30,660 nt of DNA, from IMG/VR virus record IMGVR_UViG_2585427784_000002, one strand, 5' to 3'. Shown in pieces: positions 7,410 through 27,204 of the stretch. The stretch is from a virus (taxonomy: Duplodnaviria; Heunggongvirae; Uroviricota; Caudoviricetes). The position numbers and the translations under genes are program-made. Each line of letters starts with the position of its first letter. Position 1 is the stretch's first letter. Under the pieces are notes generated by a model. The model was not told where the DNA came from, ran no database searches, and was given only the letters and a program-made list of their open reading frames with translations.

Positions 7410-8072
7410 TCAGGCGGTGAAAGTACCAATAAAGGTTTCTACTTTGCTGTCCTTGAATTTCGCAACAAGCAGATCACGAAATTCGTTAGCCATTTCTTCC
7501 TGCACTGCTTCCAGCTGAATAATGCGCAGAACCAGTACAGGACGATCGCCAGTGATAATGCTGAGGCGTAATTTAAACGGACGTTCTTTCAGGCCTTCAA
7601 ACGGAACGCATTTAAATTCAAATGCCACAGGCATAATATCTTTGGTCTTCGCTTCGACAGACTCCATCAGGGAGCGTTTGCCGCTGAAGTCATTGTCTTC
7701 AAAATCAGCGGTCTGGTTTGCTTCAATCGTGATTTTACGGACTGCCGCAGCCGCTTTTGTTGCCTGAATGGCATCACCATTAGCATCAAAGCCCACAAGG
7801 TAGTCGGCCCAGTCTTCGATCCATTCTGCCAGTGACTTCTGGGAGTTACGCTCGCCGTTAACAGACAACAGAGCAGAGAACGGTGCTGTCTTTTTCAGTT
7901 TGAGAGTGGCAGTGTTATCTGCGTGACCTGGCTCATCAATAGTACCCAGGTTATCTGATTTTCCCCTGTTCCCACGTCCCGTTTTGCCGCTTCTCCCAAA
8001 CCAACGTTTATGAAGATGCAGAAATAACGAGCAAATGGCATCATTCCTGCTTTTGTCAGGGGGAGCTACCAT
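7410..8072 (-). CDS. Phage-associated hypothetical protein (possibly YfdQ/DUF2303-like), likely 5'-truncated or fused at the junction with the invertase stub
   Basis: Long ORF; C-terminal two-thirds look protein-like, N-terminal about 40 aa are low-complexity ([13 protein letters not shown]) and overlap the plus-strand pin stub, suggesting a deletion junction. Family assignment tentative. Confidence 0.45.
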
Positions 8073-8197
8073 GCTTATTGGCTATGTACGCGTATCAACA
8101 AATGACCAGAACACCGATCTACAACGTAATGCGTTGAGCTGTGCAGGATGCGAGCTGATTTTTGAAGACAAGATAAGCGGTACAAAGTCCGAAACCT
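8069..8197 (+). pseudogene. DNA invertase (Pin/Hin/Gin family) N-terminal stub, 42 codons then stop
   Basis: Translation [42 protein letters not shown] matches the conserved N-terminus of serine DNA invertases, including the catalytic-Ser context YVRVSTNDQ; a full-length invertase is about 190 aa. Confidence 0.8.
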
Positions 8198-8294
8198 AGG
8201 GCTGACACTGCTGTTCTTGTTGCAAATTAAAGGATTTAATAGTGAGTAGCGGCCTTACTAATGTAAAGCCGCTATAATCATTTTATTAATTGCA

Positions 8295-10244
8295 TTAATC
8301 GTGTTTTGGCCATACTTTCAATGCAATTTCCCCCAACTTTTTACCCCGCTCCAGGATTTCATCCTCATCCCATTTATCCTTAACTATAAGTGGAATGTTC
8401 AGTCGTAGATTGGTGTGGACGATGAGAGCATCACGTTTTTTCAGAAATACAGCATTCTGAACAGAACGGTTTACGCTAAGGTTAAGCAAAGTTAGATTTC
8501 CCAACGTAGCTATCGCTTGTTGCCGTTTCCTTACCAGTAGCTGTTCAGGGGTAAGATCGGTTCCAGACAGAACAATTTGGTTCAATACCGTAGCATCTGA
8601 ATTTGTCACCATATGACCATTTTCGAGAGGCCAACAGGAATACCAACTTTGAGGCATAAGATGATCGATATCGAGGTTAGAAAGATTTGGAACATCAGGC
8701 TTCTCTGTCTTCACTTGGCGACAAAGTTCTCTTTCAAGTTCCGTTAACATTGAGCGCATTTTCGGTGCGTCGAGCCTGCCAGGATAAAGTGGAGCATTGA
8801 TGCAAGCGTTGAGAAATTCTGAGTCCCCAGGCCAACGTGAGGCTTCGCCATTTAAGCTATTGAGGATATTACGTAACTCAACACTGGAAATTTCCGTTTT
8901 AGACAAGTGCCGCAATACATTCATAAATACATTGTTGTAATTCTTTGGCGTCAGGCCACATACGGCTCTTCGTACTACGTAGGAGACAAGATCATTATAC
9001 ATGGCTGCTTTCTCATCATCGGCGATGTTAGCTATCGAAATGAACAAAGCAAGCGGATAAAGTGTCGTCACATCATAGGCTGCGATGCGATGTCCAAAGT
9101 GTGAGATGGGGGTTGTGCCAAAACCACCAACCAATTCTTTATATTGTGATGCATATTGTTTGAGGCGCTTTACTTGCAGATCTGCTCGTTGTGAAGGCAA
9201 GTCCTTACTTACATAATCACGATACTCATTGTAAAGACGAGACAGATCGATTTCACGTTGCCTTTCTGATTGCAATGTCGCATGCACTAGCCACTCCATG
9301 CGTGGTTTATTAATACGACCACGACGTTGTCTTTCTGACCAGTACGTATCTTCAAAGATCTTCCACTCATTCTCATATAATTCAACAGCATTAATATTTT
9401 CATGTTCAGCGCACATAAAAATATAATTGCGAATAAGATCTGTGGCATGAAGTTCCGCACCTCTGCCATTTAATGTTTCAAAAATTATTTGAGCGTCATC
9501 TTCAGCCTCGAGAAATATGCTTACTAGTTTCAGATCCGTCAAGACAGCCTCAATTAATGCTACAGCATTTTCTCGTGGTGAGTGATTTTCTATTTTAATC
9601 CACTTTATAAAGGCTTCAGTAAAAAAACATAATGCTTCTAGTGATGGCGGGTGATTAAAATGCTTACGCAACGTACCATGCTGCGTGAAACTATCAGAGA
9701 ATACATTCCGGATATCGTCAATATTTTCAACATTAAAACTTTGAATAAAATGAGTTTGATCCCGAAAAGTTGGCCACAGTTTGAAGCGCTCTACTTCTTT
9801 ATTTCGCATTGTGTCTTCGTTTGAGTTTTTCAGGCAAGACGAAATGAGAGGCTCTAAGTTGGAAAGATCTGTCGCACGTAATGCTAATCGGATGGATGCC
9901 AGAACATATTGAAGAGTGGTCAATCGTTGCTGACCATCAATAATATGTATGGAATCTACACCTAATAATCCTTTTTTTGGTTGAGGTTCCAGTACCACTG
10001 CACCAAGGAAATGGGGAGTTGGTTTTGTACCCGAGAGCCGGGATTGTGCTTTCTCTAGGATATCCTCCAGTAGAGCTGACCATTGGTTTCGCTGAGTCCA
10101 TACATAGGCACGTTGATAGAATGGAACGCAGTATTGTCGGCGGTCTTGAAAAAGTTGTTGGACAGTTAGCGTCTCGGATTTCATGGTATACCTGTAAGCG
10201 ACATTGTACAAAAGTGAGGAGTTAATCTGATTTAGAACAATCAT
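8295..10244 (-). CDS. GmrSD-family type IV (modification-dependent) restriction endonuclease, fused DUF262 (ParB-like NTPase) + DUF1524 (His-Me/HNH-like nuclease); probable true start at 10184 (MKSETLTVQQLF...)
   Basis: N-terminal DUF262 signature ...IHIIDGQQRLTTLQY...; C-terminal DUF1524-type motif ...LDIDHLMPQSW...; single 629-649 aa polypeptide as in GmrSD/BrxU-like enzymes. Confidence 0.8.
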   Translation of the reverse strand: MIVLNQINSSLLYNVAYRYTMKSETLTVQQLFQDRRQYCVPFYQRAYVWTQRNQWSALLEDILEKAQSRLSGTKPTPHFLGAVVLEPQPKKGLLGVDSIHIIDGQQRLTTLQYVLASIRLALRATDLSNLEPLISSCLKNSNEDTMRNKEVERFKLWPTFRDQTHFIQSFNVENIDDIRNVFSDSFTQHGTLRKHFNHPPSLEALCFFTEAFIKWIKIENHSPRENAVALIEAVLTDLKLVSIFLEAEDDAQIIFETLNGRGAELHATDLIRNYIFMCAEHENINAVELYENEWKIFEDTYWSERQRRGRINKPRMEWLVHATLQSERQREIDLSRLYNEYRDYVSKDLPSQRADLQVKRLKQYASQYKELVGGFGTTPISHFGHRIAAYDVTTLYPLALFISIANIADDEKAAMYNDLVSYVVRRAVCGLTPKNYNNVFMNVLRHLSKTEISSVELRNILNSLNGEASRWPGDSEFLNACINAPLYPGRLDAPKMRSMLTELERELCRQVKTEKPDVPNLSNLDIDHLMPQSWYSCWPLENGHMVTNSDATVLNQIVLSGTDLTPEQLLVRKRQQAIATLGNLTLLNLSVNRSVQNAVFLKKRDALIVHTNLRLNIPLIVKDKWDEDEILERGKKLGEIALKVWPKHD

Positions 10245-12705: not shown

Positions 12706-13920
12706 GTGAAACTCAATGCCCGTCAAATAGACACAGCCAAGCCAAAAGAGAAGGCTTACAAGCTGGCCGATGGTGGCGGTTTGTATCTCTTGGTAAAACC
12801 TAATGGAGGTAAATACTGGCGACTTAAATATCGTGTAGCTGGTAAAGAGAAGCTATTGGCACTAGGTGTGTATCCTGAGGTTACTCTAGCCGATGCTCGG
12901 GCAAAACGTGAAGATGCGAAAAGAGGTATCGCTGGTGGTATCGATCCGATGGAAGCGAAACGAGAGGAAAAGATTGCCCGGGAAACGCAGTTAAACAACA
13001 CCTTCAAAGATATTGCCCTTGAGTGGCACAGCAGCAAATTAAAAAAATGGTCTGCTGGTTATGCTTCAGACATCCTCGAAGCCTTCAACAAAGATGTGTT
13101 CCCTTACATTGGCAAAAAACCAATCGCCGAAATCAAACCACTTGAACTTCTGAATGTGCTGCGGCGCATCGAGGGGCGCGGTGCGACAGAAAAAGCCAAA
13201 AAAGTGAGGCAGCGGTGCGGGGAAGTTTTCCGCTATGCAATAGTCACTGGTCGCGCAGAGTATAACCCTGCACCAGACCTTACTAGCGCGATGCAAGGCC
13301 ATGAATCTAATCATTACCCTTTCCTTACGACCAAAGAATTACCTGATTTTTTCAAGGCATTGTCCAGTTACTCAGGAAGCGCATTGGTTGTTATGGCGGC
13401 TCGTCTACTGATTATCACCGGCTTGCGAACTGGCGAACTACGTGGCGCATTATGGGATGAAATTGATTTCAACAAGGCTATATGGGAGATACCCGCTTCA
13501 CGTATGAAAATGCGGCGGCCTCATATTGTGCCATTGTCTGAGCAGGCTCTTTCGCTTATTGGGAAGATTAGAGAAATAACAGGCAATTACCCTCTTATGT
13601 TTCCCGGGCGCAATGATCCAAGGAAAACAATGAGTGAGGCCAGCATAAACCAAGTGTTTAAGCGCATTGGCTACGCTGGACGTGTAACTGGTCATGGGTT
13701 CCGACACACTATGAGCACGATTTTGCATGAGCAGGGCTATAACACCGCGTGGATAGAAACGCAGCTCGCTCACGTTGATAAGAACTCAATTCGTGGCACA
13801 TACAACCATGCGCAATATCTGGATGGACGGCGGGAGATGCTTCAATGGTATGCCGACTATATGGATTCTCTCGAGCATGGCGGAAATGTGGTGCATATGG
13901 TGTTTGAAAAACACGCATGA
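12706..13920 (+). CDS. P4-type tyrosine integrase (404 aa), tRNA-adjacent
   Basis: N-terminal DUF4102-like region (MKLNARQIDTAKPKEKAYKLADGGGLYLLVKPNGGKYWRLKYR), box I Arg (IITGLRTGELRGALWDEID), HGFRHT box II, C-terminal Tyr region; immediately downstream of the tRNA 3' fragment. Confidence 0.92.
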   Translation: MKLNARQIDTAKPKEKAYKLADGGGLYLLVKPNGGKYWRLKYRVAGKEKLLALGVYPEVTLADARAKREDAKRGIAGGIDPMEAKREEKIARETQLNNTFKDIALEWHSSKLKKWSAGYASDILEAFNKDVFPYIGKKPIAEIKPLELLNVLRRIEGRGATEKAKKVRQRCGEVFRYAIVTGRAEYNPAPDLTSAMQGHESNHYPFLTTKELPDFFKALSSYSGSALVVMAARLLIITGLRTGELRGALWDEIDFNKAIWEIPASRMKMRRPHIVPLSEQALSLIGKIREITGNYPLMFPGRNDPRKTMSEASINQVFKRIGYAGRVTGHGFRHTMSTILHEQGYNTAWIETQLAHVDKNSIRGTYNHAQYLDGRREMLQWYADYMDSLEHGGNVVHMVFEKHA

Positions 13921-14347: not shown

Positions 14348-14551
14348 ATGGCTAATTACAATTCATTAATTCGTCTCTCTGAAGTTCAAAGGCGAACTGG
14401 TTATAGCAAAGCATGGATTTATCGTCTTATTAGTCAGGGGAGGTTCCCTAAACAGGTAAAAATTGGAAGTCGGGCAATTGCTTTTGTTGAGTCTGAAATA
14501 GATGAATGGATTGAGAAGTGTATATTAGAATCTAGAGACGAGGTGGCCTGA
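14348..14551 (+). CDS. AlpA-family phage transcriptional regulator / excisionase-like (67 aa)
   Basis: MANYNSLIRLSEVQRRTGYSKAWIYRLISQGRFPKQVKIGSRAIAFVESEIDEWI is the AlpA/P4 Vis-type HTH pattern; ATGA overlap with the next gene. Confidence 0.85.
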   Translation: MANYNSLIRLSEVQRRTGYSKAWIYRLISQGRFPKQVKIGSRAIAFVESEIDEWIEKCILESRDEVA

Positions 14552-14982
14552 TGGAAAAGAAAAACCGCCCATTACAGGCGGCTAATTCAGATATTCGCGT
14601 ATCTGACATTACGCCCCTTACAAAATCCCTTCAAGCACCAAAGCGCACACCGAAAAAGCATCGTGCCCGAGTCTATATGCTGCGTACTGGTATAGAGGGA
14701 TGGACAGAAAATGACATTCTTCGCTACTGCCGTCTGTCTTCTGGTCGTAACTATGCAACAGAGTTAGAACGCCAGCTTGGAATCACTCTGGAGCGTATCG
14801 ACGAAAAGAATCCTGATGGTATCGGAACACACCTTCGCTACCGTTTCTCCTGCCGTGGTGATGTTCTGAAAGTGATCACTCATGTTAACTATCTTGCGAG
14901 CATAAATGATCACAACGGACTTTCTCAGCAGGAAATTACCGACATTCTGAAACTCTACCCGGACGCGTTTAACGCCGCCTAA
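14551..14982 (+). CDS. Hypothetical protein (143 aa)
   Basis: ORF translationally coupled to alpA-like gene; no family recognised. Confidence 0.55.
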   Translation: MEKKNRPLQAANSDIRVSDITPLTKSLQAPKRTPKKHRARVYMLRTGIEGWTENDILRYCRLSSGRNYATELERQLGITLERIDEKNPDGIGTHLRYRFSCRGDVLKVITHVNYLASINDHNGLSQQEITDILKLYPDAFNAA

Positions 14983-14994
14983 CGGAGACTGAAA

Positions 14995-15828
14995 ATGAAC
15001 ATCGAAAAAAGCAGATTAATTTCTGAGGCCGCCCCTCATCTGAACGCCTCTCTGGGCACAATTAACGGTAATGAATTTGCCGCAATTGTCCCGGTTATTC
15101 CTGGTCACATCGGTGGGCGTGAAACCAATATTGTTAGCGCAAAAGCGTTACACAAAGCGTTGGGCGTGGGAAAAGACTTCTCTACATGGATCACTGATCG
15201 CATCTCTGAATATGACTTCACCATTGGGCACGATTACTCAGTCCATAAAACAATTTCCCCAAATTTGGGGAAAAGCCCGAATGGCGCGGCTTACAGCAAG
15301 ATTAAGCAGTCTGGCAGACCCGGCAAAGACTATCTGTTAAGTGTCGGAATGGCGAAAGAACTGGCAATGATCGAACGCAATGATCAGGGTCGCGCTATCC
15401 GTCGTTATTTCATCCAGTGCGAGGAAGAATTACAGCGTAGCGTGCCTGAAATCGCCGCCCGCTATCGTCGCCAGCTAAAAGCCCGTATCAGTGCCGCAAA
15501 CAACTTTAAGCCAATGTGCGATGCGCTGAATATGGCCCGTGCCGAGCAGGGGAAAACGACGCAGCAACACCACTACACAAATGAGAGCAATATGATTTCT
15601 CGTATCGTTCTTGGAGGGCTAACTGCTAAGCAGTGGGCGCGGATAAATGGCTATTCTGGCGAACCTCGCGACCATATGAACGCAGAACAGCTTGAGCACC
15701 TCTCATATCTCGAAAGCACCAATATCACGTTAATTGATATGGGCATGGAATATGAGCAGCGCAAAGGAGAACTCACCCGCCTGTCGCAACGCTGGCTCGC
15801 CAAGCGTCTGGAGGCGGTCCATGTTTAA
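14995..15828 (+). CDS. Phage antirepressor/regulatory protein, Rha/AntA/Bro-N-like N-terminal domain (277 aa)
   Basis: N-terminal segment ...NIVSAKALHKALGVGKDFSTWITDRISEYDFTIGHDYSV... matches the phage regulatory (Rha/antirepressor) domain pattern. Confidence 0.6.
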   Translation: MNIEKSRLISEAAPHLNASLGTINGNEFAAIVPVIPGHIGGRETNIVSAKALHKALGVGKDFSTWITDRISEYDFTIGHDYSVHKTISPNLGKSPNGAAYSKIKQSGRPGKDYLLSVGMAKELAMIERNDQGRAIRRYFIQCEEELQRSVPEIAARYRRQLKARISAANNFKPMCDALNMARAEQGKTTQQHHYTNESNMISRIVLGGLTAKQWARINGYSGEPRDHMNAEQLEHLSYLESTNITLIDMGMEYEQRKGELTRLSQRWLAKRLEAVHV

Positions 15829-16003
15829 GCCGACAGGAACACCACAACCTCAAAAACGCTACAAAGATGCCCACGGAGCACTCGTTACTGTCGAAAGCGT
15901 GTCTCACAACCGAGTGACGTTTTATCGCGACGGGTATCAATCGCCATGCGTACAACCGCTGGCGCGCTTCATGAAGGAGTTCGCGGAGGTTAACAAATGC
16001 TAA
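15821..16003 (+). CDS. Small phage protein, DUF4222-like (60 aa)
   Basis: GGAGG RBS 6 nt upstream of ATG at 15821; start overlaps the previous stop (translational coupling). Family assignment tentative. Confidence 0.55.
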   Translation: MFKPTGTPQPQKRYKDAHGALVTVESVSHNRVTFYRDGYQSPCVQPLARFMKEFAEVNKC

Positions 16004-17064
16004 CCGTCCAGAAGAAGATATTTTCACTGGCTGGTATGTCGCCAAAATCCAGCAATATGACAGCAAAGTCTGGCATTAATACAGCAGATACAAGCAAAGT
16101 TTATCATTTTCTGGTGGTAGGAGCGGATGCCTTAACTATGTCAGAAATTACGGTCGATGGTGTTAGCGTTGAGAAGGTCGGCGGCTGCGCCAGAGAATTT
16201 CTGGTCGTAGATGGCTTTCTCTGCTCGCGTAGTGACTCCACAAAAACCTTCGTCCACACGCGCGACGTTAACGAAATGAGCGCGATGTATTGTGCATCTG
16301 GTGCTTCCAATAGTGAGTTTTCGGAGTCCATAAAAAAGAGCTTGCCGTTATGCGGCAACACGGTTTATGGTTATAAGGCACCTCATAAAACGGGTGCCGG
16401 GATTGGCGTCCTGGTAAATCGAATGGCGACATATGACGCGCCGAGCGTCTTTTTTTATGTCGTAGGTCTGACTCACCAATTTTTTGGGCGTTGGTGTATA
16501 ATCCAGCGCCTTTGTCAATCAATGGTGGCTCAGGCAGGGGCTTCTTCGGAAGCGCCGGTATCCATTCGAGCCGGTTACGCCAACCCTGTCTGGGCTACCA
16601 CCAGCGAAATTGGCGTTTCCGGTGGTAGCGTTACATGCTATCGAATGGAGGCTGCCACATGCTGGCTACTACCCCTACCCAAAAACCGCAATTTATCTGG
16701 ATTATCGCCGCAGTTCGCCGCGATTGCCCGACAATTACCGCCAAAATTCATCATATTGCTGCCGAGTCTGAACGCGATGCTCGCCGTTCTCTGGTGCGCG
16801 ATCACGTCTGCTTTTTTGCTGGTCGTATCCGCATGGAGGTGGCACATGATTAAAACCTACGATGTGCATATGGATCCCCTCGAACGCACAAGCCAGATCA
16901 TCACACTGACAGAAGTGATTAACGACATTCTGGTGAGCAACTCTCCCTCACGAGACGAAAGACTGAAGGCGTTACTCGCGATATTGGATCTCGCCGTTCG
17001 TGACGTTCATTTCCTGCTGGAAGGTGGCGAAATGCCAGGAAAAACGGGGGCAACCAATGAATAA
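15997..17064 (+). CDS. Hypothetical protein; the frame is open for 355 codons but the 3' extent is uncertain because two shorter RBS-preceded genes are nested in or appended to it
   Basis: GGAGG RBS 8 nt upstream of ATG at 15997 and overlap with previous stop support the start; no stop until 17064. Confidence 0.4.
16659..16853 (+). CDS. Host cell-division inhibitor Icd-like protein (64 aa)
   Basis: [64 protein letters not shown] resembles the Icd-like small proteins of P4-type elements (conserved FFAGRI region); GGAGG RBS 7 nt upstream; lies in a different frame inside the 355-codon ORF. Confidence 0.55.
   Translation: MLATTPTQKPQFIWIIAAVRRDCPTITAKIHHIAAESERDARRSLVRDHVCFFAGRIRMEVAHD
16846..17064 (+). 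CDS. Hypothetical small protein (72 aa)
   Basis: GGAGGTGG RBS upstream of ATG at 16846; ATGATTAA overlap with the Icd-like stop; same frame as the tail of the 355-codon ORF. Confidence 0.5.
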   Translation: MIKTYDVHMDPLERTSQIITLTEVINDILVSNSPSRDERLKALLAILDLAVRDVHFLLEGGEMPGKTGATNE

Positions 17065-17251
17065 CTCAATTAATGCCCCTCGACTTACGTCCGCACTTCA
17101 ATTAATCGAGCAAGCAGCGGCTGTCCTGGTTGCTGTCAGTCTTTCGGCTGAAGAAATGGACGCTGCTGATGTCGTGGATGCGATTAAAGCGTGCTCATCT
17201 TTGGTTAACGATGCCCGTGCAGAGCTGGTAATTCTTGGGGGTGAAAAATGA
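17057..17251 (+). CDS. Hypothetical small protein (64 aa)
   Basis: Start overlaps preceding stop (ATGAATAA); part of the coupled operon. Confidence 0.5.
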   Translation: MNNSINAPRLTSALQLIEQAAAVLVAVSLSAEEMDAADVVDAIKACSSLVNDARAELVILGGEK

Positions 17252-17511
17252 ATATCAACTTAATTTATCGTCATCCGTGTGAGCTGGAAATTGAATCATT
17301 GCTGAGTCGTGAAGAGCTATATCCAGACACATTCACTCTTGCAGATCGCACGACTGAACGGCTTACCAGAGCGCGCACAGGTCTGGTTCATGTGATGAAT
17401 GAGATTCTTCCATCGGTGGGAGGGGAACAGGCGACAGTAATCAATAGCTGGCTACAAAAAGTTACCTCCCTGATAGATATCAGTTTAATCGATGCGGAGA
17501 GTGCGAAATGA
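17248..17511 (+). CDS. Hypothetical small protein (87 aa)
   Basis: ATGA overlap with both neighbours; part of the coupled operon. Confidence 0.55.
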   Translation: MNINLIYRHPCELEIESLLSREELYPDTFTLADRTTERLTRARTGLVHVMNEILPSVGGEQATVINSWLQKVTSLIDISLIDAESAK

Positions 17512-18676: not shown

Positions 18677-19040
18677 AAATGCAGAAATGGCGCTTAGCTC
18701 CGCAATCGGAGAGCAGGTGGCAAAGATTGCTGGCGCTGTGTGGATTCATAACCTTCATTCTACTGGTGAAGAGAAAATGGCAATTCAGACGCCAGAGGGA
18801 CGCACCATTACTACATCTCTGAAGGTGTCAGATGTTTGTGATCTGATTTGCGCATTCATGTACCCAGCAATGAGGACTGTCCACGGCGATAAGTGGAAAC
18901 TTGCGACAACCGCTGAATTTGATATGTGGCTAAACAATGATGGCATGCTGACTGATTACGGAATAACCAAGTGGCAGATGCTGGTTAGCCATATCGCAAA
19001 CGCTATAGACCACGTGGGGTACGGTGATGCGAAACATTGA
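18669..19040 (+). CDS. Hypothetical protein (123 aa)
   Basis: Overlaps neighbours at both ends; part of the coupled operon. Confidence 0.55.
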   Translation: MRENAEMALSSAIGEQVAKIAGAVWIHNLHSTGEEKMAIQTPEGRTITTSLKVSDVCDLICAFMYPAMRTVHGDKWKLATTAEFDMWLNNDGMLTDYGITKWQMLVSHIANAIDHVGYGDAKH

Positions 19041-21783
19041 TCTTATCCGTCAGGTTATCAGTGCGTCTGAAAACAACTGGCCTCATGTGCTGGGCTGCCT
19101 GAACATAAATGTCCCTGACTCTCCGCGCCGTCATGCTCCCTGCCCTGCATGTGGGGGCAAAGATCGATTCCGGTTCGATGACAACGGGCGCGGTAGCTTC
19201 ATCTGTAATCAGTGCGGCGCTGGTGATGGACTGGATTTAATTAAACGCGTAAATAACTGCGACACAACAGAGGCGGCGCTTCTTGCCGCTGATGTTCTGG
19301 GTATTGATTACCGGACAACGGAAACACCAGAAGCCACCAGCCAGAAACGGGAACAACTGGAAACCGAGCGCCAGCGACGCGAACAGGAGCGCCTGAAAGG
19401 GGCAGAGAAGGACGAACAACAAAGACGGGATACGTTTTCCCGTCAGTTTGATGACATGCGCAGAAAGGCTGTAAACGGCAAATCTGATTATCTGGTTGCG
19501 AAAGGGGTAGGTGATTTTACATTCCCCGTGTTGCCCGATGGATCTCTGTTGCTGGCGCTGGTGGATAAATCCGGCGCAGTAACAGCAGCACAGACTATTA
19601 CCTCACATGGTGAAAAAAGACTCCTGACAGGTTCAGCAAAGCGAGGGGCATATCACGCCATAAACGCACCAGAAACAACACAGAGCATCTTAATCGCAGA
19701 AGGGCTGGCAACGGCATTATCTGTCCATTTAATTCGTCCAGAGGCGCTGACAGTGGCGGCGATTGATGCCGGGAACCTGTTATATGTCGCCCAGGTACTG
19801 CGGGATAAATTTCCTTCAGCACAAATCATCATTGCTGCGGATAACGACCACAGCGAAGGAAGACAAAACACGGGGAGAATAGCAGCAGAAAAAGCAGCTT
19901 TATCTGTTTCTGGATGGGTGGCATTACCCCCGACAGATCACAAAGCAGACTGGAATGATTACCACCAAAAACACGGCATTAAATGCGCCACAGAAGCGTT
20001 CAATAAGTCAATGTACCAACCACAGGGTAATGGCGTGAAACAGGAGCCACAGACCATTGAGGGAAGCGATTTTAAGGTTATGGATACCGACCCACTGAAA
20101 CCAAGAATAGAAAGCCGCGAGGATGGTATTTATTGGGTATCTCCGAGAGCTGACAGCCAGAGTGGAGAAATCATCAATAACGAAAGCTGGTTATGTTCTC
20201 CATTAAGCGTTATCGGTACTGGCAGAGACGATAAAGACCAGTATCTCATTCTTCGCTGGCTGTCGTTTGGTTCTGAAACGCCGACAACCGCTGCCATTCC
20301 ACTGGCTGATATTGGTGAACGTGAAGGATGGCGCACACTTAAAGCTGGTGGGGTAAATGTCACGACCAAAAGCAGCCTCAGAGCAATACTGGCAGACTGG
20401 CTACAACGCAGTGGCTCTCGTGAATTGTGGCGTGTTGCTCATGCCACTGGCTGGCAATGCGGAGCGTACATCATGCCTGATGGGGAAATCATCGGAACAC
20501 CTGAAAATCCTGTGCTGTTCAGCGGGAGAAGCTCAGCCGCAGCCGGATATACCGTCTCAGGGAGCGCGAAAAGCTGGCGTGATAACGTGGCGCGTCTGGC
20601 CTTTGGTAACTATTCAATGATGACCGGGATCGGCGCAGCACTGGCAGCGCCATTGATTGGGCTGGTGGGCGCTGACGGGTTCGGCATTCATTTCTATGAG
20701 CAGTCGAGCGCAGGTAAGACCACCACGGCAAACGTGGCGAGCAGCTTATACGGCAACCCTGATTTACTGCGGCTGACGTGGTACGGAACCGCGCTGGGGC
20801 TGGCAAATGAAGCTGCCGCCCACAATGACGGACTAATGCCGCTTGATGAAGTTGGTCAGGGCGCTGATCCTGTCAGTGTTTCACAGTCTGCCTATGCGTT
20901 ATTTAACGGTGTAGGGAAACTGCAAGGCGCTAAAGATGGTGGAAACCGGGATCTAAAACGCTGGCGTACAGTGGCAATCAGCACCGGAGAAATGGATTTA
21001 GAAACATTTATCGCTACTTCCGGGCGAAAAACCAAAGCCGGGCAACTGGTGCGACTGCTGAATATTCCGTTGAGTAAAGCAGTACGCTTTCACGATTACC
21101 AGAACGGAAAACAGCACGCAGACGCACTGAAAGACGCTTACCAGCATCACCACGGCGCAGCCGGGCGTGAGTGGATTAAATGGCTGGCAGACCACCAGCA
21201 ACAGGCAATTAAAACTGTTCGTGACTGCGAAAGCAGATGGAGAAGTCTGATCCCATCCGATTATGGTGAGCAGGTTCACCGTGTAGCCGCGCGATTTGCC
21301 ATTCTGGAGGCCGCATTGCTGTTAGGCGAGGTTGTAACAGGCTGGGATGCTCAGACATGCCGTGATGCGATACAGCACAGCTATAACGCATGGTTGCGCG
21401 AGTTCGGCACAGGTAACAAAGAACATCAGCAGATTATTGAACAAACGGAGGCATTTCTTAATGCCTATGGGCTTAGCCGTTTTGCACCATTTCCATACAG
21501 CCCGGCAGATTTGCCCATCAAAGATTTAGCCGGATACCGTCAGCGTGGAGAACATGACGAAAGCCCAATGATTTTCTACACATTCCCGGCCACATTTGAA
21601 AAGGAGATCGCATGTGGTTTCAACGCAAAACAGTTTGCTGAAGTGTTGAAAAAAGCCGGGATGCTAACCCCACCAAACAGCGGTCGTGGATACCAAAGAA
21701 AATCACCACGTATTCAGGGACGACAAATAAACGTTTATGTACTCAATTACCAGCCAGGAGATTACAACTCATCTGAAGAATGA
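19024..21783 (+). CDS. Primase-helicase (P4 alpha-like): N-terminal Cys4 zinc-binding primase region, TOPRIM-like segment, C-terminal P-loop NTPase (919 aa)
   Basis: CPACGGKDRFRFDDNGRGSFICNQCG zinc-finger; TOPRIM-like IIAEGLATAL and DxD-type acidic motifs (AADNDH); Walker A YEQSSAGKTTTAN; ori-like iterons immediately downstream. Confidence 0.85.
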   Translation: MMRNIDLIRQVISASENNWPHVLGCLNINVPDSPRRHAPCPACGGKDRFRFDDNGRGSFICNQCGAGDGLDLIKRVNNCDTTEAALLAADVLGIDYRTTETPEATSQKREQLETERQRREQERLKGAEKDEQQRRDTFSRQFDDMRRKAVNGKSDYLVAKGVGDFTFPVLPDGSLLLALVDKSGAVTAAQTITSHGEKRLLTGSAKRGAYHAINAPETTQSILIAEGLATALSVHLIRPEALTVAAIDAGNLLYVAQVLRDKFPSAQIIIAADNDHSEGRQNTGRIAAEKAALSVSGWVALPPTDHKADWNDYHQKHGIKCATEAFNKSMYQPQGNGVKQEPQTIEGSDFKVMDTDPLKPRIESREDGIYWVSPRADSQSGEIINNESWLCSPLSVIGTGRDDKDQYLILRWLSFGSETPTTAAIPLADIGEREGWRTLKAGGVNVTTKSSLRAILADWLQRSGSRELWRVAHATGWQCGAYIMPDGEIIGTPENPVLFSGRSSAAAGYTVSGSAKSWRDNVARLAFGNYSMMTGIGAALAAPLIGLVGADGFGIHFYEQSSAGKTTTANVASSLYGNPDLLRLTWYGTALGLANEAAAHNDGLMPLDEVGQGADPVSVSQSAYALFNGVGKLQGAKDGGNRDLKRWRTVAISTGEMDLETFIATSGRKTKAGQLVRLLNIPLSKAVRFHDYQNGKQHADALKDAYQHHHGAAGREWIKWLADHQQQAIKTVRDCESRWRSLIPSDYGEQVHRVAARFAILEAALLLGEVVTGWDAQTCRDAIQHSYNAWLREFGTGNKEHQQIIEQTEAFLNAYGLSRFAPFPYSPADLPIKDLAGYRQRGEHDESPMIFYTFPATFEKEIACGFNAKQFAEVLKKAGMLTPPNSGRGYQRKSPRIQGRQINVYVLNYQPGDYNSSEE

Positions 21784-22545: not shown

Positions 22546-23007
22546 ATGGAACTAAAATTTATTGATAACCCTGTGCGATTACAGGCCTTTCTTAACGAGC
22601 CTGGCAATACCGAAAATATTGTTGAGCCGGGGCACACGTACTACATCAAGCCTGATGCGGTATATCTCGGTATCTACGAAGGATTGGTGCTGGCTGGCGT
22701 TCATGAAGTGCGTAACTTCTGGCATAGCATTGTTGAATGCCATGCGGTGTACGACCCCGGATTCCGTGGTGAATATGCACTACAAGGGCATCGATTATTC
22801 TGCAAATGGCTTCTCGAAAACTCACCATTCCTTAACAGCATCACCATGGTTCCTGACACAACGAAATACGGACGGGCAATTATCCGTTTGCTTGGCGCTA
22901 CCCGTGTTGGTCACCTTGATGATGCTTATATCAGATGTGGTAAACCCGTCGGCGTAACGCTTTATCAGTTAACTCGGCAACAATATAAGGAATTCAGCGA
23001 ATGTTAA
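22546..23007 (+). CDS. Hypothetical protein (153 aa); by position possibly the podovirus gp14-like gene preceding the ejection-protein genes
   Basis: ORF directly upstream of and overlapping the next gene's start; family not recognised from sequence. Confidence 0.5.
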   Translation: MELKFIDNPVRLQAFLNEPGNTENIVEPGHTYYIKPDAVYLGIYEGLVLAGVHEVRNFWHSIVECHAVYDPGFRGEYALQGHRLFCKWLLENSPFLNSITMVPDTTKYGRAIIRLLGATRVGHLDDAYIRCGKPVGVTLYQLTRQQYKEFSEC

Positions 23008-23678
23008 TTACCCATATAGCTCATAAATATCTCAATCGTGCCGTATACGAAAAAGGCGGTGATGGTGGTGCCTCTAAAGCTCAGGCGAAGGCCCAGCAGC
23101 AGGCAATTGATTTGCAGCGCGAGCAGTGGAATACGGTGATGAATAATCTCAAGCCGTATGCAGAAGTCGGATTGCCTGCTTTACAACAACTACAAGGACT
23201 GATGACTCTGGAAGGGCAGAATAAAGCCGCGAATGATTTCTTTGGTTCTGGTTTATATAAAACACAGGCAGATCAGGCCCGTTATCAGAACCTTGTCTCA
23301 GCAGAAGCTACCGGGGGGCTTGGCACAACAGCTACCAGTAACCAGTTATCTTCCATTGCGCCCATGCTTTATAACAATTGGCTCAGTGGGCAAATGCAAA
23401 ATTATGGAAACCTGCTAAATGTCGGGATGAATGCGGCATCAGGGCAGGCAACAGCAGGGCAAAACTACGCCAATAATACCGGACAACTCTTGCAGGGGCT
23501 TGGCGCTATTCGTGCAGGTCAGGCGCAGCAGCCATCCAGTCTTGCGCGTGGTATTGGTGGGGCGGCATCAGGCGCTTTAGCGGGTGCGCAACTTGGTTCC
23601 GTTGTTCCGGGTATAGGTAATGTCGCCGGGGCTATTGGTGGTGGGCTTATTGGTCTTGTTGGGGGGCTTGGATTCTAA
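23001..23678 (+). CDS. Q/A/G-rich protein with glycine-zipper C-terminus (225 aa); candidate P22 gp7-like ejection (DNA-transfer) protein
   Basis: N-terminal ...YEKGGDGGASKAQAKAQQQAIDLQREQW..., extensive Gln/Ala/Gly low complexity, C-terminal GxxxG-rich hydrophobic tail (GIGGAASGALAGAQLGSVVPGIGNVAGAIGGGLIGLVGGLGF); size and position match gp7 of P22-like phages (from memory). Confidence 0.45.
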   Translation: MLITHIAHKYLNRAVYEKGGDGGASKAQAKAQQQAIDLQREQWNTVMNNLKPYAEVGLPALQQLQGLMTLEGQNKAANDFFGSGLYKTQADQARYQNLVSAEATGGLGTTATSNQLSSIAPMLYNNWLSGQMQNYGNLLNVGMNAASGQATAGQNYANNTGQLLQGLGAIRAGQAQQPSSLARGIGGAASGALAGAQLGSVVPGIGNVAGAIGGGLIGLVGGLGF

Positions 23679-25099
23679 TGGCGACATGGCAACTTGGCGG
23701 GCTGCCTAGCATGGCACCGCAAAATGATAATGCTCCTCGTTCTTCCGTTCCTCAGCCTGTGCAGTATCAGCAGCAGCCAAACGTAGGTTTAATGGCGCTA
23801 CAGGGGCTAAGAGGCGTTGCTGAGATTAATCAGCAGGCACGTCAACAACAGCGTAAAGCAGAGTTTCAGAAAGCATATGCCGGGGCTTTTGAGTCTGGAG
23901 ACAGAAACAAAATGCGCAGTCTTATTTCTGAGTATCCAGAAGAATTTGAAAGCGTTCAGAAAGGGATGGGCTTTATTGATGACGACCAGAGAAATTCTAT
24001 TGGTCATCTTGCGACTAGTGCTCAAATCGCATCTTCGCTCGGAACTGGGGCATTTGGAAAATTCATAGCAGATAACGAAGATGAAATGCGTCGCTTGGGA
24101 ATTTCTCCTGAGTCTGTTGCCGAAATGCATGTTAATGATCCACAGGAATTCCAGCGGCTTGCTGGTAGTATGGCACTGTTTTCTCTCGGTCATGAGAAGT
24201 ACTTCGATATCAAAGATCGAATGGAAGGTCGGGATATTGAGCGTGGCAAGTTGGCAGAGACAATCCGCAGCAATCAGGCTGGAGAGGCGCTTCAGGCGAG
24301 AGGGCAGGATATTAGCCGAGCAAATGCGTTAACGTCAGCATATGCACCAACAGCCGCAATGCAGAATTACAATCAGTACGCGCAAATGTTAAAGGCGGAT
24401 CCAGAGGGGGCAGCGGCATTTGCGGCAGCGGCTGGAATTAATACAAACGCCAAAAAATTAATGAGTGTTAGGGAAAACGATGATGGCACTGTCACAAAAT
24501 ACTACACAGACGGAAGTGAAGAGCAGGGAAAACTCACCCAGCCAATATCTGGAGATGGGTTTCGTCCAATAGCTTTGCCAACAGCCCAAAAGATCATGGA
24601 AAAGTCGCCAGAAGGGGCTAAAAAAGCTGCTGGATTTGCATACAGGGTTAGGGATGCTCTTGATTCAATAGATACACTGAGAGACCAGCTTAGCCCACAG
24701 CGAGTGGCGATCATTAATAATGCTTTGGGTAATGGGACGCTGGCTAACTTAACGCTCAGCCCAACAGAGCAGCAATACGTTGTTAATGCTAATGACGCAA
24801 TAATGGCAATACTCCGTCAGGAAACAGGGGCAGCTATCGCACCTGCTGAAATGTCAAAATATTATCAAATGTATTTCCCTCAGCCTGGCGACTCCACAAA
24901 AACCATTGATACCAAGCGCCGGAAGATGGAAAACCAGTTCAATTCGCTGAAAGCTGCTTCTGGTCGAGCTTATGATGCTTTGCGGGTTATTTCAGCAGTT
25001 GACAGAGGAACTTCTTCTTCGTCGCAGACATTGCCGCAATCTGAGCAGGTATCACAGCCAGCAGCCAGCAGTAACTTTTCTTCACTATGGGGTGATTAA
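23678..25099 (+). CDS. Q/A-rich protein (473 aa); candidate P22 gp20-like ejection (DNA-transfer) protein
   Basis: Start overlaps previous stop (TAATG); low-complexity Gln/Ala-rich composition; size close to P22 gp20 (about 471 aa, from memory). Confidence 0.45.
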   Translation: MATWQLGGLPSMAPQNDNAPRSSVPQPVQYQQQPNVGLMALQGLRGVAEINQQARQQQRKAEFQKAYAGAFESGDRNKMRSLISEYPEEFESVQKGMGFIDDDQRNSIGHLATSAQIASSLGTGAFGKFIADNEDEMRRLGISPESVAEMHVNDPQEFQRLAGSMALFSLGHEKYFDIKDRMEGRDIERGKLAETIRSNQAGEALQARGQDISRANALTSAYAPTAAMQNYNQYAQMLKADPEGAAAFAAAAGINTNAKKLMSVRENDDGTVTKYYTDGSEEQGKLTQPISGDGFRPIALPTAQKIMEKSPEGAKKAAGFAYRVRDALDSIDTLRDQLSPQRVAIINNALGNGTLANLTLSPTEQQYVVNANDAIMAILRQETGAAIAPAEMSKYYQMYFPQPGDSTKTIDTKRRKMENQFNSLKAASGRAYDALRVISAVDRGTSSSSQTLPQSEQVSQPAASSNFSSLWGD

Positions 25100-27204
25100 T
25101 GGCTAAAGCATGGAAAGATGTTATCGCCTCTCCACAGTATCAGGCGTTAGCACCAGAACAAAAAGCGCAGGCTCAGGAGCAATACTTCAATGAAGTCGTG
25201 GCCCCGCAAGCCGGAGAAAGTGTAGAGCAGGCTAAGCAGGCTTTTTATGCTGCCTATCCACTACCATCAACGAATGAAATAGACCGATCCCAATCAGCAA
25301 CTCAAAATATTCAACATACATCATCTGATAATTCTCTTGCGTCAGGGTATGCAAAGTTAGCTACTCAGCAAAGAGAGGGGCTTGAGCGTTCAGCAGAACA
25401 GGGAGCCAGTCTTGGGGCTGCGATGCGCGATGCTATAACAGGCGAAAGCCGAATGACTCCAGAGATGGAGAGACTGCAAAATGTCGCCTCTGCCCCAGAA
25501 TTGAACTCACTAAGCATGGATGCCCTAAAGGCTGGATGGTCTCAACTTTTCGGCTCTGACGCGTCTCAGGAAAAGATTCTTCAGGGAATGGGGGCGACAT
25601 TAAGGCAGGATGAGAAGGGGAATACTATCGTTTCTCTGCCATCAGGTGATTATGCCCTGAACAAGCCGGGTTTATCACCGCAAGACCTGACTTCGTTTCT
25701 TGCTAATGCGTTGGCGTTTACACCAGCGGGCAGGGCTGGAACGGTGCTTGGTGCCATAGGAAAATCAGCAGCTACAGATTTAGCACTACAGGGAGCCACC
25801 AGCCTTGCTGGTGGAGAAGATATTGATCCGTTACAAACGGTAATTTCTGCTGGCATTGGTGGTATTGGTAAGGGGCTGGAAAATACAGCGAGTGCGGTTT
25901 CGAGGGCTGTTCGTGGTGATATGTCGCCTGAAGCAAAGGCTGCTGTCGACTTTGCATCGGAAAGAAATCTGCCGTTAATGACCAGTGACATGCTGAAAGA
26001 TAAAACCTTTATGCAGAGTCAGGCTCAGACATTAGGCGAAAGAGTTCCTTTTTTTGGAACCGGTAAGAATCGGCTGAATCAACAACAAGCACGAGAAAAT
26101 TTAGTCAGAACATTTAGCGATGGTCTGGGTGGCATTTCTGATAAACAGCTTTATGAATCTGCGACTAAAGGGCAACAAAAATTCATTGAGGCAGCAGGAA
26201 AGCGATATAACCGCATAATTGACGCTATGGGGGATACCCCTGTCGATCTCTCAAACACGGTAAAAGCTATCGACAATCAGATTGCCGTGTTAAGCCGCCC
26301 GGGCAAATCTCAGGATAGAGCCGCGGTAAAAGTCTTGCAGCAATTTAAAGACGATATCACCAGCGGACCAAATGACCTGCGTCTGGCGAGGGAAAACAGA
26401 ACCGATCTTCGAAAGCGATTTATGGCGTCATCTGACACTGTTGATAAAGATACGCTCCAGAAAGCCAGCGATATTATCTACAAGGCATATACGGCGGATA
26501 TGAAAAAAGCCGTAGCCAAAAATCTTGGAGCAGACGAAGCCATTAATATGGCAAGGGTTGATCGCTCATGGTCTAAATTCAATGACATGATGGGAAGAAC
26601 GCGCGTTCAAAAGGCAATAGCCAGCGGCAAGGCCACGCCTGAGGATGTAACAAAACTCGTTTTTAGCCAAAGCCCATCAGAACGTTCTCAGCTTTACAGG
26701 CTTCTGGATGACAATGGTAGGCAAAACGCACGAGCAGCCATAGTTCAGAATGCTGTAGATAAGGCGACTGATCCGTCTGGAAATATCAGTGTCGAGAAGT
26801 TTATTAATGCGTTACACCGGAACAGGAAGCAATCAGCAACTTTCTTTAAAGGCGTACATGGAAAGGAACTGGACGGCGTTATTAAATACCTCAACGATAC
26901 AAGACACGCGGCAAAAGCGAACGTTCAAAACTTAAATGGTCAGCAGCTTTATGGATTGTTAGTTGGTGGTGGCATCATAAACGCAGCAGTATTAGCGGGG
27001 ATGCTAAAAACGGCTGCGTTTGTTGTTCCTGCTGCTGGTGCCGTAGGCGGAGCAGCGAAGGCATACGAAAGCCCTGTTATACGAAATGCCTTGTTACGTC
27101 TGGCAAATACGCCAAAAGGTAGCACAGCATATGACAGAGCGATCAGTACGGTCACACAATCGCTCACCAGAGTCGCACAGGCATCACAAAAAGAAGCTCA
27201 ATAA
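25099..27204 (+). CDS. Q/A/G-rich protein (701 aa) with hydrophobic Gly/Ala-rich segment near the C-terminus; candidate P22 gp16-like ejection protein
   Basis: Start overlaps previous stop (TAATG); GGGVTGA-type RBS; composition similar to the two preceding proteins; third member of a 7-20-16-like trio. Confidence 0.45.
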   Translation: MAKAWKDVIASPQYQALAPEQKAQAQEQYFNEVVAPQAGESVEQAKQAFYAAYPLPSTNEIDRSQSATQNIQHTSSDNSLASGYAKLATQQREGLERSAEQGASLGAAMRDAITGESRMTPEMERLQNVASAPELNSLSMDALKAGWSQLFGSDASQEKILQGMGATLRQDEKGNTIVSLPSGDYALNKPGLSPQDLTSFLANALAFTPAGRAGTVLGAIGKSAATDLALQGATSLAGGEDIDPLQTVISAGIGGIGKGLENTASAVSRAVRGDMSPEAKAAVDFASERNLPLMTSDMLKDKTFMQSQAQTLGERVPFFGTGKNRLNQQQARENLVRTFSDGLGGISDKQLYESATKGQQKFIEAAGKRYNRIIDAMGDTPVDLSNTVKAIDNQIAVLSRPGKSQDRAAVKVLQQFKDDITSGPNDLRLARENRTDLRKRFMASSDTVDKDTLQKASDIIYKAYTADMKKAVAKNLGADEAINMARVDRSWSKFNDMMGRTRVQKAIASGKATPEDVTKLVFSQSPSERSQLYRLLDDNGRQNARAAIVQNAVDKATDPSGNISVEKFINALHRNRKQSATFFKGVHGKELDGVIKYLNDTRHAAKANVQNLNGQQLYGLLVGGGIINAAVLAGMLKTAAFVVPAAGAVGGAAKAYESPVIRNALLRLANTPKGSTAYDRAISTVTQSLTRVAQASQKEAQ

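Follow-up and report, generated by a model that had tools for sequence, protein, structure and literature searches.

Three overlapping open reading frames

The window analysed here is a stretch of 30,660 nucleotides of a tailed virus (IMG/VR record IMGVR_UViG_2585427784_000002, Caudoviricetes), and all features discussed below lie on its + strand. A long open reading frame (ORF), identified from the ORF list, Pfam and PHROG as an eta/'ash family' homolog, spans 15997..17064 (355 codons) from the ATG at 15997 to the TAA at 17062-17064. It is preceded by a Shine-Dalgarno sequence, GGAGG at 15985-15989, 7 nt 5' of the ATG. The start codon shares bases with the stop of the upstream neighbor, a DUF4222 gene at 15821..16003 (ATGCTAA), an overlap predicted to couple the long ORF translationally into the alpA-antA operon. 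A long-ORF start overlapping the stop of the upstream gene recurs in 134 of 143 unique loci.

The long ORF consists of a variable N-terminal part (15997-16365), a segment over RNA genes (16366-16692), a passage through the icd gene in the +1 frame and, lastly, an in-frame fusion to the next gene. Residues 124-232 (nt 16366-16692) match the Pfam profile PF10554 (Phage_ASH; E 7e-30), which also matches the eta ORF of satellite P4. The N-terminal 127 aa gave no match in Pfam, PHROG or NCBIfam, and homologs of this segment are confined to close Escherichia coli relatives. Long forms of the 'ash family' are widespread in E. coli and Klebsiella, and related sequence was detected in 1376 of 5426 complete E. 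coli genomes.

The icd gene at 16659..16853, which is preceded by its own Shine-Dalgarno sequence (GGAGG, 16647-16651) and is not in frame with the long ORF (phase -1/+2 relative to it), encodes a 64-aa Icd-like protein. The protein scores 71.3 bits with NCBIfam NF033153 (phage_ICD_like; cutoff 25, E 5e-20) and is 39% identical to P4 Kil. It aligns with the last 65 aa of the P4 ORF 8812-8168, an ORF that we take to be eta, with kil presumably being those last 65 aa. On this sequence evidence the long ORF is most likely the homolog of P4 eta and the Icd-like ORF that of P4 kil. Consistent with this, the phrog_6928 profile is divided between the two frames, with its positions 31-149 on the long frame and 138-194 on the icd frame; a match split consecutively over two frames is evidence of a frameshift when compared with the in-frame family. 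The icd frame is open and conserved in 19/19 genome loci and clearly coding, as evidenced by a codon-position entropy of 0.31/0.25/0.82, the measure taken for icd constraint because L097, a locus with an indel in icd, distorts pooled dN/dS. Family membership predicts that the protein inhibits cell division or kills the cell. The 5' part of icd is C-rich and G-poor (GC skew -0.33 at 16660-16739) and is possibly a rut site or an analog of timm, which is reportedly located inside P4 kil.

The third ORF (16846..17064, 72 aa) has its own ATG at 16846, preceded by GGAGG at 16835-16839, and overlaps the icd stop by 8 nt (ATGATTAA). It has its frame and stop in common with the long ORF and thus also forms the C-terminal 72 residues of the latter. 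Its homologs, 39-100% identical at the amino acid level, include stand-alone copies in loci where eta and icd are in frame; these copies and per-locus dN/dS values of 0.15-0.23 identify it as a real gene. AlphaFold2 predicts a helical region with pLDDT 53-65 at long-ORF residues 300-332. The third ORF showed no match in Pfam, PHROG or NCBIfam and no similarity to P4 epsilon. The next gene 3' of it is reached by a further overlap, ATGAATAA, and the primase of the downstream replication genes lies at 19024-21783.

These results bear out the preliminary description of this DNA in its three main elements, namely an ORF with a ribosome-binding site that starts at 15997 and stays open for 355 codons, a 64-aa Icd-like ORF with its own GGAGG in another frame, here placed in its family by the NF033153 match, and a third ORF with a ribosome-binding site that begins over the Icd stop and has the same frame and stop as the long ORF. 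The description had also considered that one of the three calls might be wrong and that the Icd-like frame might lack conservation. Neither is supported: icd is coding and conserved in all 19 genome loci, and the third ORF is a real gene (dN/dS as above).

RNA genes and control signals inside the long ORF

Two RNA genes that do not appear in the preliminary description score above the Rfam gathering threshold inside the long ORF. The first is an isrK/P4 seqA-type leader RNA at 16378..16455 (RF01394, 67.1 bits, gathering score 50), which contains the target boxes a1 (ATTGGCGT, 16402-16409) and b1 (ATCGAATGG, 16418-16426) and an intrinsic terminator with a stem at 16435-16449 followed by a T run. 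The second is a C4/P4 CI-type antisense immunity RNA at 16518..16605 (RF01695, 79.5 bits, gathering score 45). It matches the full model (positions 1-87) and carries the recognition segments b' (CCATTCGA, 16562-16569) and a' (ACGCCAA, 16577-16583). C4 is present in 19/19 genome loci and in P4, and isrK in 18/19 and in P4, L021 being the locus without a gathering match; accordingly, the isrK-C4 pair lies 5' of icd in 18/19. In two related loci, c4-a1b1 (RF03163) was detected over the 5' part of isrK.

A downstream, seqC-like C4 target occupies 16609..16651. It consists of box a2 (ATTGGCGT, 16609-16616) and box b2 (ATCGAATGG(A), 16640-16649), the latter overlapping the icd GGAGG at 16647-16651. 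Across 27 b types and 15 a types, cognate complementarity between C4 and its targets is 95-97% for b2, a1 and a2 and 62% for b1, compared with 4-14% for non-cognate pairs, and C4 and its targets covary three ways. The window thus holds a C4 RNA of the family, a leader with the first targets and a terminator, and a covarying second target that covers a ribosome-binding site. By analogy with known C4 systems, C4 is predicted to be processed from the leader transcript, and bound C4 to cause termination. The covarying specificities are also a resource for defining satellite immunity groups.

Upstream of isrK, at 16342..16371, we found a putative PLE-like sigma-70 promoter composed of a -35 element (TTGCCG, 16342-16347), an 18-nt spacer and a -10 element (TATGGT, 16366-16371). 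Its predicted transcription start at ~16378 is the 5' end of isrK. The hexamers are conserved and the spacer is variable among 78 unique loci and P4, a pattern that points to promoter function. A consensus scan missed this promoter because just 8 of 12 positions match. An additional hairpin lies between isrK and C4 at 16487..16510 (stem GGCGTTGG/CCAGCGCC, loop TGTATAAT); among loci with 140-nt isrK-C4 spacing its stem covaries and its loop is conserved. The TATAAT at 16497-16502, considered as a second promoter, was rejected as it is this conserved loop.

Openness of the long frame and competing explanations

The PF10554 match falls on the same stretch of DNA as the -10 element of the promoter, isrK, C4 and their targets. 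The long ORF could be an annotation artefact, an accidental, untranslated open frame over an RNA control region in which icd and the third ORF are the only genes and the Ash family is a conceptual translation of isrK and C4. Several observations fit this explanation. Long-frame codon-position entropies are 0.63/0.61/0.68 over isrK and 0.78/0.72/0.77 over C4, without 3-periodicity, and over icd it is codon position 2 of the long frame that is most variable. The amino acid sequence over the RNA genes and icd is thus without coding-type constraint in the long frame. AlphaFold2 returned no confident fold for the 355-aa ORF (mean pLDDT 32.9; residues 1-299 stay below 50 even with an alignment of 64 sequences). 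With no codon periodicity over isrK/C4 and such pLDDT values, Phage_ASH does not qualify as a protein domain. A promoter and a terminator lie within the ORF, and PGAP annotations of near-identical DNA contradict each other: RefSeq labels 98.8%-identical copies 'ash pseudogene + Icd' although no stop is present. A stop near 16632, which the pseudogene label would imply for these relatives, was rejected since 0 of the 21 differences create a stop, and the label is an annotation inconsistency only.

Comparison of related loci nevertheless argues against an untranslated frame. The distance from C4 to the icd ATG is 141 nt in the window and 142 nt in P4, and this 1-nt difference in the spacer puts eta in the +1 frame relative to icd. 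Among 165 related loci, 89 are out of frame like the window and 75 are in frame. Relative to C4, the eta frame is open in 164/165 loci; it stays open through icd in 88/89 out-of-frame loci and ends at the icd stop in 74/75 in-frame loci. In unique sequences the +1 frame of icd is stop-free in 51/52 out-of-frame cases and in 12/68 in-frame cases, the other 56/68 distinct in-frame sequences having stops. Synonymous shuffling predicts open fractions of 0.42 for the out-of-frame and 0.15 for the in-frame class; we observed 0.98 and 0.18. For the window alone, a stop-free +1 frame over icd is unremarkable (P ~0.53 by synonymous codon shuffling), and it is the comparative pattern of openness that is far beyond chance. 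The icd tree contains ~12 out-of-frame runs whose P(open) values multiply to 2e-9, although these runs are partly dependent because of recombination and of single in-frame derivatives splitting clades, so that there were fewer than 12 independent origins.

Spacing and continuity follow the same frame. The isrK-C4 spacing classes of 98, 101, 125, 128, 140 and 185 nt are in phase in 99/104 unique sequences; this spacing changes almost solely by multiples of three, while the C4-icd spacer freely varies by 1 nt. The ATG of the next gene is in the eta frame in 77/80 unique out-of-frame loci and belongs to at least five unrelated gene families, although the link between frame class and next-gene start offset may come in part from shared descent. 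Openness in 88/89 loci against ~0.42 expected, in-phase indels between isrK and C4, and a start with Shine-Dalgarno sequence and conserved upstream-stop overlap all speak against an artefact. Moreover, P4 eta is reportedly translated and required for read-through, as far as the account in PMC10111431 goes. Overall, we consider an artefact quite unlikely. Selection appears to act on the open frame, that is on the act of translation, and not on the peptide over the RNA genes and icd.

Slightly less probable still, in our view, is that the 355-aa product itself works as a multi-domain regulator of the 'Bro network' type, in which the Ash segment, perhaps together with the 72-aa C-terminus, has a protein function and the long frame is dual-coding with icd. 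In favor of this, both the Pfam and the PHROG family carry regulator annotations, the long form has a wide distribution in E. coli and Klebsiella, and in relatives AntA or other N-terminal domains are fused to Ash (P0009, P0012; PMC10111431). The N-terminal 105 codons have a pN/pS of 0.49, compared with 0.55 in the wrong frame; such constraint is weak and may be read for or against a protein role, neither proving nor excluding it. Against a regulator stand the missing coding-type constraint over the RNA genes and icd, the lack of a confident predicted fold, and an N-terminal segment with no family match and homologs only in close E. coli relatives. In addition, the residues encoded at the C4 b' loop vary according to RNA specificity, and in half of the family the ORF goes no further than the icd stop, which makes the C-terminal fusion dispensable.

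A recent 1-nt frameshift that left the window with a decaying pseudogene of an in-frame eta-kil gene is disfavored and very improbable: near-identical in-frame copies (L105 and L131, spacer 142 nt versus 141 nt) and the division of the phrog_6928 match between two frames would agree with it, but the out-of-frame state occurs in 52/120 unique icd sequences down to ~67% Icd identity and in E. coli, Klebsiella, Leclercia, Pluralibacter and Symbiopectobacterium, these loci consistently have an open frame and a matching downstream gene phase, and the icd tree contradicts a single recent out-of-frame clade. Programmed frameshifting that would fuse eta to Kil is also unlikely. The CCCAAAAAC at 16680-16688, noted by eye as a -1 slippery site, was rejected as an improper heptamer that is not conserved (aligned residue K or N).

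The comparison also bears on what the preliminary description had left as alternatives. An ancestral stop near 16650 was not lost, as a stop before icd occurs in only 1/165 loci; the alternative state among relatives is an in-frame eta-kil fusion as in P4, and where eta and icd are in frame the first gene normally ends at the icd stop. The idea of a genuine overlapping gene stands insofar as the long ORF is a Phage_ASH-bearing P4 eta homolog kept open through icd, and fails insofar as its amino acid sequence over the RNA genes and icd is without coding-type constraint. Correspondingly, substitutions are frame-constrained in icd and unconstrained in the long frame over isrK, C4 and icd.

Proposed mechanism and comparison with known systems

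We propose that the region is probably a module by which a P4/PICI-type satellite controls immunity and replication through RNA, with a frame-shifted eta/kil pair that is kept for read-through translation. The RNA genes, the internal promoter and terminator and the link to P4 eta/kil explain the layout of overlapping ORFs, and the window is best read as a frame-shifted variant of the already known nested eta/kil genes. The scheme below assumes, by analogy with P4, that the long ORF is translated, that termination depends on Rho and that C4 is processed. In the immune state, the internal promoter (16342-16371) would start RNA at ~16378, downstream of the long-ORF ATG, so that its transcripts could not translate the long ORF. 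Most of them would end at the isrK terminator. C4/CI RNA would be processed from read-through RNA and pair with a1/b1 in the leader and with a2/b2 over the icd ribosome-binding site. With icd/kil untranslated, the naked C-rich RNA would be terminated and the downstream replication genes would remain off.

In the induced state, RNA would come from the upstream, helper-responsive alpA promoter, and start/stop overlaps would pass ribosomes along the successive genes until they enter the long ORF at 15997. There they would traverse the promoter, the terminator of isrK, C4, its targets and icd, and their passage would block terminator and antisense structures as well as Rho loading, resulting in operon read-through. 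In the window, the +1-frame eta would cross icd and join the next gene, whose ATG is in the same frame, making ribosome flow continuous to 17064 and, by overlap, into the following gene. The frame switch might itself be functional, with induced ribosomes bypassing the toxic Kil/Icd and the next gene's product playing two roles, as the C-terminal domain of a fusion and as a free isoform made by internal initiation; we regard this as unlikely. More broadly, the family would on that reading offer a case in nature of an ORF whose only selected role is to let ribosomes pass over two sRNA genes and an out-of-frame protein gene.

Among the related loci the frame relation to kil is free, but the long frame is kept open, the spacing in phase and the connection to the next gene unbroken. 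The proposal also explains the annotation: an 'ash family protein' of 320-375 aa corresponds to the P4 eta frame over two regulatory RNA genes, and Icd-like corresponds to Kil, with databases inconsistently calling now the one, now the other. PF10554 largely represents RNA-gene sequence and is not P4 epsilon, a point of caution for satellite-detection pipelines in which it serves to mark epsilon.

The closest known system is P4. As summarized in PMC10111431 from Forti et al. (1999, J Bacteriol 181:5225), P4 Eta is translated solely from the upstream late promoter, coupled to the alpA homolog, its translation prevents termination, and expression from the internal promoter yields Kil, a truncated form of Eta. 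The comparative evidence fits this 1999 model, in which eta acts by being translated, and by analogy long-ORF translation would prevent premature termination in the window as well, a prediction that the maintained openness and the in-phase indels support indirectly. CI pairs with seqA and seqC, and isrK is the seqA homolog (PMC4825925). In a related E. coli PICI, the helper induces the alpA promoter (PMC11773190). The window shares with P4 the order, from the 5' end, of a coupled ORF start, an internal constitutive-type promoter, an isrK/seqA leader with terminator, a C4/CI RNA, a target over a ribosome-binding site and a Kil/Icd-like ORF of 64-65 aa. In both, a coupled long ORF that starts 5' of the internal promoter spans seqA, CI and seqC and matches Phage_ASH, and a replication operon containing a primase lies downstream. 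They differ in that P4 eta has kil as its C-terminal part, in the same frame, whereas the window eta is without Kil sequence and fused to the next gene (355 aa versus 197-199 in P4). The isrK-C4 spacing is 140 nt in the window and 185 nt in P4, the N-terminal parts are unrelated, the window gene after kil is unrelated to P4 epsilon, and the window element has AntA, DUF4222 and P22-type ejection genes instead of sid/delta/psu.

The immI region of P1/P7 (c4, icd, ant) shares the C4 RNA family (RF01695), the duplicated targets a1/b1 and a2/b2, the position of b2 over the icd ribosome-binding site and an Icd-like small protein as first translated gene. In P1, however, ant lies 3' of icd and is coupled to it, while in the window the AntA-family gene comes before icd, and small ORFs and a primase come after it. 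We know of no eta-like long ORF described for P1.

Finally, Gifsy-1 isrK-orf45-anrP of Salmonella (Hershko-Shalev et al. 2016, PMC4825925) resembles the window in its IsrK sRNA with a leaky terminator and in a translated ORF, orf45, that overlies a conserved processed RNA, STnc1160. In orf45 the nucleotides are conserved and the amino acids are not, and its translation is needed for downstream gene expression by coupling (PMC4825925). It differs in that orf45, at 45 aa, is short and has its start 3' of the IsrK terminator, IsrK is a trans-acting activator, and the locus is without an icd-like gene (PMC4825925).

Nested reading frames and RNA genes within the long ORF

The preliminary description placed an Icd-like gene out of frame inside a 355-codon ORF, and all three of its reading frames were recovered. 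The long ORF starts at ATG 15997, with GGAGG 7 nt 5' of it and overlapping the stop of the DUF4222 gene directly upstream, and ends at 17062-17064. The nested 64-aa ORF (16659-16853, here icd) has its own GGAGG (16647-16651) and matches NCBIfam phage_ICD_like with 71 bits (cutoff 25). The third, 72-aa ORF (16846-17064) begins with an ATG overlapping the icd stop by 8 nt and reads in the long ORF's frame to the same stop.

From 14541 on, the window is 99.6% identical to the element of E. coli 042 (99.9% with 15700-17400 as query), and sequence related to this query was found in 1376 of 5426 complete E. coli genomes. RefSeq/PGAP annotates the 042 copy as a single 355-aa 'ash family protein' with Icd not called. 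In strains GN02350 and ET565 (98.8% identity) it gives an 'ash pseudogene, missing C-terminus' and an Icd-like protein, leaving the third ORF uncalled. No stop in the long frame was found in these copies, nor any frameshift between copies, so the discrepancy is one of annotation only. A homologue of the small ORF at 17248-17511 is labelled 'nicotinic acetylcholine receptor subunit beta' in some RefSeq genomes, an evident misannotation. The integrase (12706-13920) and AlpA-like gene (about 14350-14553) are unlike those of the 042 element, the match starting only at 14541; the element is therefore a mosaic whose integration module has been exchanged. To the left of the satellite integrase, a few kb away, 8295-10244 (minus strand) encodes a GmrSD-type restriction endonuclease of 649 aa (PF03235 and PF07510), a type that acts on modified DNA.

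On the same strand as the long ORF and inside it, Rfam detects isrK (16378-16455, 67 bits), with an intrinsic terminator at its end (16435-16449) followed by a T run, and the C4 antisense RNA (16518-16605, 79.5 bits). C4 carries the recognition segments b' CCATTCGA and a' ACGCCAA, each with two complementary copies: boxes a1 (16402-16409) and b1 (16418-16426) lie inside isrK, a2 (16609-16616) and b2 (16640-16649) downstream of C4, with b2 overlapping the icd Shine-Dalgarno. Among related loci we distinguished 27 b types and 15 a types; complementarity between C4 and its cognate targets is 95-97% for b2, a1 and a2 and 62% for b1, compared with 4-14% for non-cognate pairs. Just 5' of isrK, the hexamers TTGCCG and TATGGT (18-nt spacer; 16342-16371) bear the signature of a putative promoter, because in 78 unique related sequences and P4 they are kept while the spacer differs. 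Between the isrK terminator and C4, a hairpin at 16487-16510 (GGCGTTGG, loop TGTATAAT, CCAGCGCC) has a covarying stem and a conserved loop among loci whose isrK-C4 spacing is 140 nt. Outside both Rfam models and not present where the spacing is 98 or 101 nt, it may serve in processing or stability.

Openness of the eta frame among related loci

We gathered 180 related loci from genomes, viral contigs and metagenomes and could locate C4 and icd in 165. The frame equivalent, relative to C4, to P4 eta, whose homologue is the long ORF, is open over both RNA genes in 164 of these. In 75 loci the distance from C4 start to icd ATG is 139, 142 or 145 nt and eta shares the icd frame, which is the P4 state; in 89 loci it is 138, 141 or 144 nt and eta lies in the +1 frame, the state of the window. 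The eta ORF stops at the icd stop in 74/75 in-frame loci and is open through the whole of icd in 88/89 out-of-frame loci, most of these ORFs ending 172-211 nt beyond icd at the next gene's stop. When the 120 unique icd sequences are compared, 51/52 out-of-frame but only 12/68 in-frame cases have no stop in the +1 frame. Synonymous codon shuffling predicts open fractions of 0.42 and 0.15, respectively, against the observed 0.98 and 0.18. The icd tree requires at least 13 changes of frame class and contains 12 out-of-frame runs, all open save one metagenomic sequence; the product of null probabilities over these runs (2e-9) overstates their independence, since recombination occurs and single derivatives split clades.

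The isrK-C4 length classes (98, 101, 125, 128, 140 and 185 nt) differ by multiples of three in 99/104 unique sequences, whereas the C4-icd spacer shows free one-base variation. The eta ORF start overlaps the upstream gene's stop, whichever gene that is, in 134 of 143 unique loci. The gene that follows icd starts in the eta frame, with its ATG 7 nt ahead of the icd end, in 77/80 unique out-of-frame loci, and these genes belong to at least five families unrelated to one another; starts of the ATGA type use the other frame and occur almost only in in-frame loci. Among the few loci with a broken eta frame are L104, L121, L129 and L135, mostly metagenome contigs (L121 with ~1x coverage by contig name). 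The breaks seen are a stop inside icd, a 140-nt spacer or an additional T in a T run, and such loci may be sequencing errors or decaying copies.

Coding signal and interpretation of the long ORF

In the icd frame, variation shows a strong codon periodicity (0.31/0.25/0.82 by position), while in the long frame it is flat over isrK (0.63/0.61/0.68) and C4 (0.78/0.72/0.77), and over icd the long frame's codon position 2 varies most. The residues encoded over the C4 loops vary along with RNA specificity. AlphaFold2 (64-sequence alignment) gave pLDDT below 50 for residues 1-299, and only the third-ORF part attained 53-65. Family searches with the N-terminal 127 aa returned no match, and homologues come from close E. 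coli relatives only; pN/pS of this part (0.49) is barely better than in a wrong frame (0.55), compared with 0.18 for the adjoining DUF4222 gene. No sign of selection is seen on the peptide that the long frame encodes over the RNA genes and icd. The third ORF has the properties of a genuine gene, with dN/dS of 0.15-0.23, at saturating synonymous divergence, and stand-alone copies with the same start in in-frame loci.

The absent coding signal is what a pure annotation artefact would give, but we consider this unlikely, as it is at odds with the maintained openness, the in-phase indels and the coupled starts. It is quite improbable that the product is a functional fusion protein: nothing points to such a role, and half of the family lacks the fusion. 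A one-off frameshift mutation in the window copy runs counter to how broad and stable the out-of-frame class is, and is very improbable.

Selection for an unbroken ribosome path best fits the comparative sequence data. Ribosomes would pass from the helper-inducible alpA operon over the immunity RNAs and the icd/kil region to the downstream replication genes; the alpA promoter of a related PICI is helper-induced (PMC11773190). By analogy with P4, the internal promoter would be used, C4 processed from the transcript and icd translation blocked; termination would be Rho-dependent, and translation of the long ORF would act against it. The stretch 16660-16739 is C-rich and G-poor (GC skew -0.33), which is only suggestive of Rho-dependent termination. 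Forti et al. reportedly placed timm within kil.

Comparison with P4 and other systems

The P4 genome has isrK and then C4 matches 5' of a 65-aa ORF, in the same order as the window. This ORF, 39% identical to the window's Icd-like protein, forms the in-frame C-terminal part of a longer ORF of 214 codons that starts with MMM, corresponds to 197-199 aa and also has a Phage_ASH match. We take the P4 long ORF to be eta and its 65-aa end to be kil; the P4 C4 is the known CI RNA. According to the part of PMC10111431 that summarises Forti et al. (1999), Kil, produced on read-through, is a truncated Eta; translation of the full-length form occurs only from an upstream late promoter, is coupled to the alpA homologue and prevents termination. 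PMC4825925 gives isrK as the structural homologue of P4 seqA and names both seqA and seqC as pairing partners of CI. Of PHROG 6928, an in-frame eta family, profile positions 31-149 match the window's long frame and 138-194 its icd frame; relative to this family, the window therefore carries a frameshift. Its arrangement is that of P4 eta/kil, with the two frames uncoupled instead of in frame.

The Pfam Phage_ASH match (PF10554), source of the protein's name, covers aa 124-232 of the long ORF (nt 16366-16692), approximately the -10 region, isrK, C4 and the icd start. The match in the P4 locus (7888-8812) is in the eta frame, and P4 epsilon, a PF25738 'Derepression' protein, has none. A survey of P4-like satellites used PF10554 as an epsilon/'Ash' marker (PMC8628076); as the domain matches the isrK/C4-encoding eta stretch and not epsilon, this marker detects the CI-RNA immunity region.

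C4/CI RNA immunity, nested eta/kil genes and an Icd-like Kil are already known. Our literature search found no description of the out-of-frame configuration (about half of relatives), of the consistent fusion of out-of-frame eta to the next gene, or of comparative evidence for conserved openness, as opposed to sequence. The 'antirepressor - Ash - primase' core of the window resembles that of the E. coli PICI EcCIMP1, which is mobilised by a P22-like phage (PMC11773190). P4 sid, delta and psu are not carried by the window; at 22546-25099 (and 25099-27204) the satellite has DUF2824 and homologues of the phage P22 ejection proteins gp7 (PF25688) and injectosome translocase (PF16928). In Gifsy-1 isrK-orf45-anrP, orf45 is translated, lies downstream of IsrK and holds a processed RNA of about 80 nt, STnc1160, conserved in nucleotide but not amino-acid sequence (PMC4825925). 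Judged by position, STnc1160 is probably the C4 homologue, in which case orf45 would be analogous to a short eta frame.
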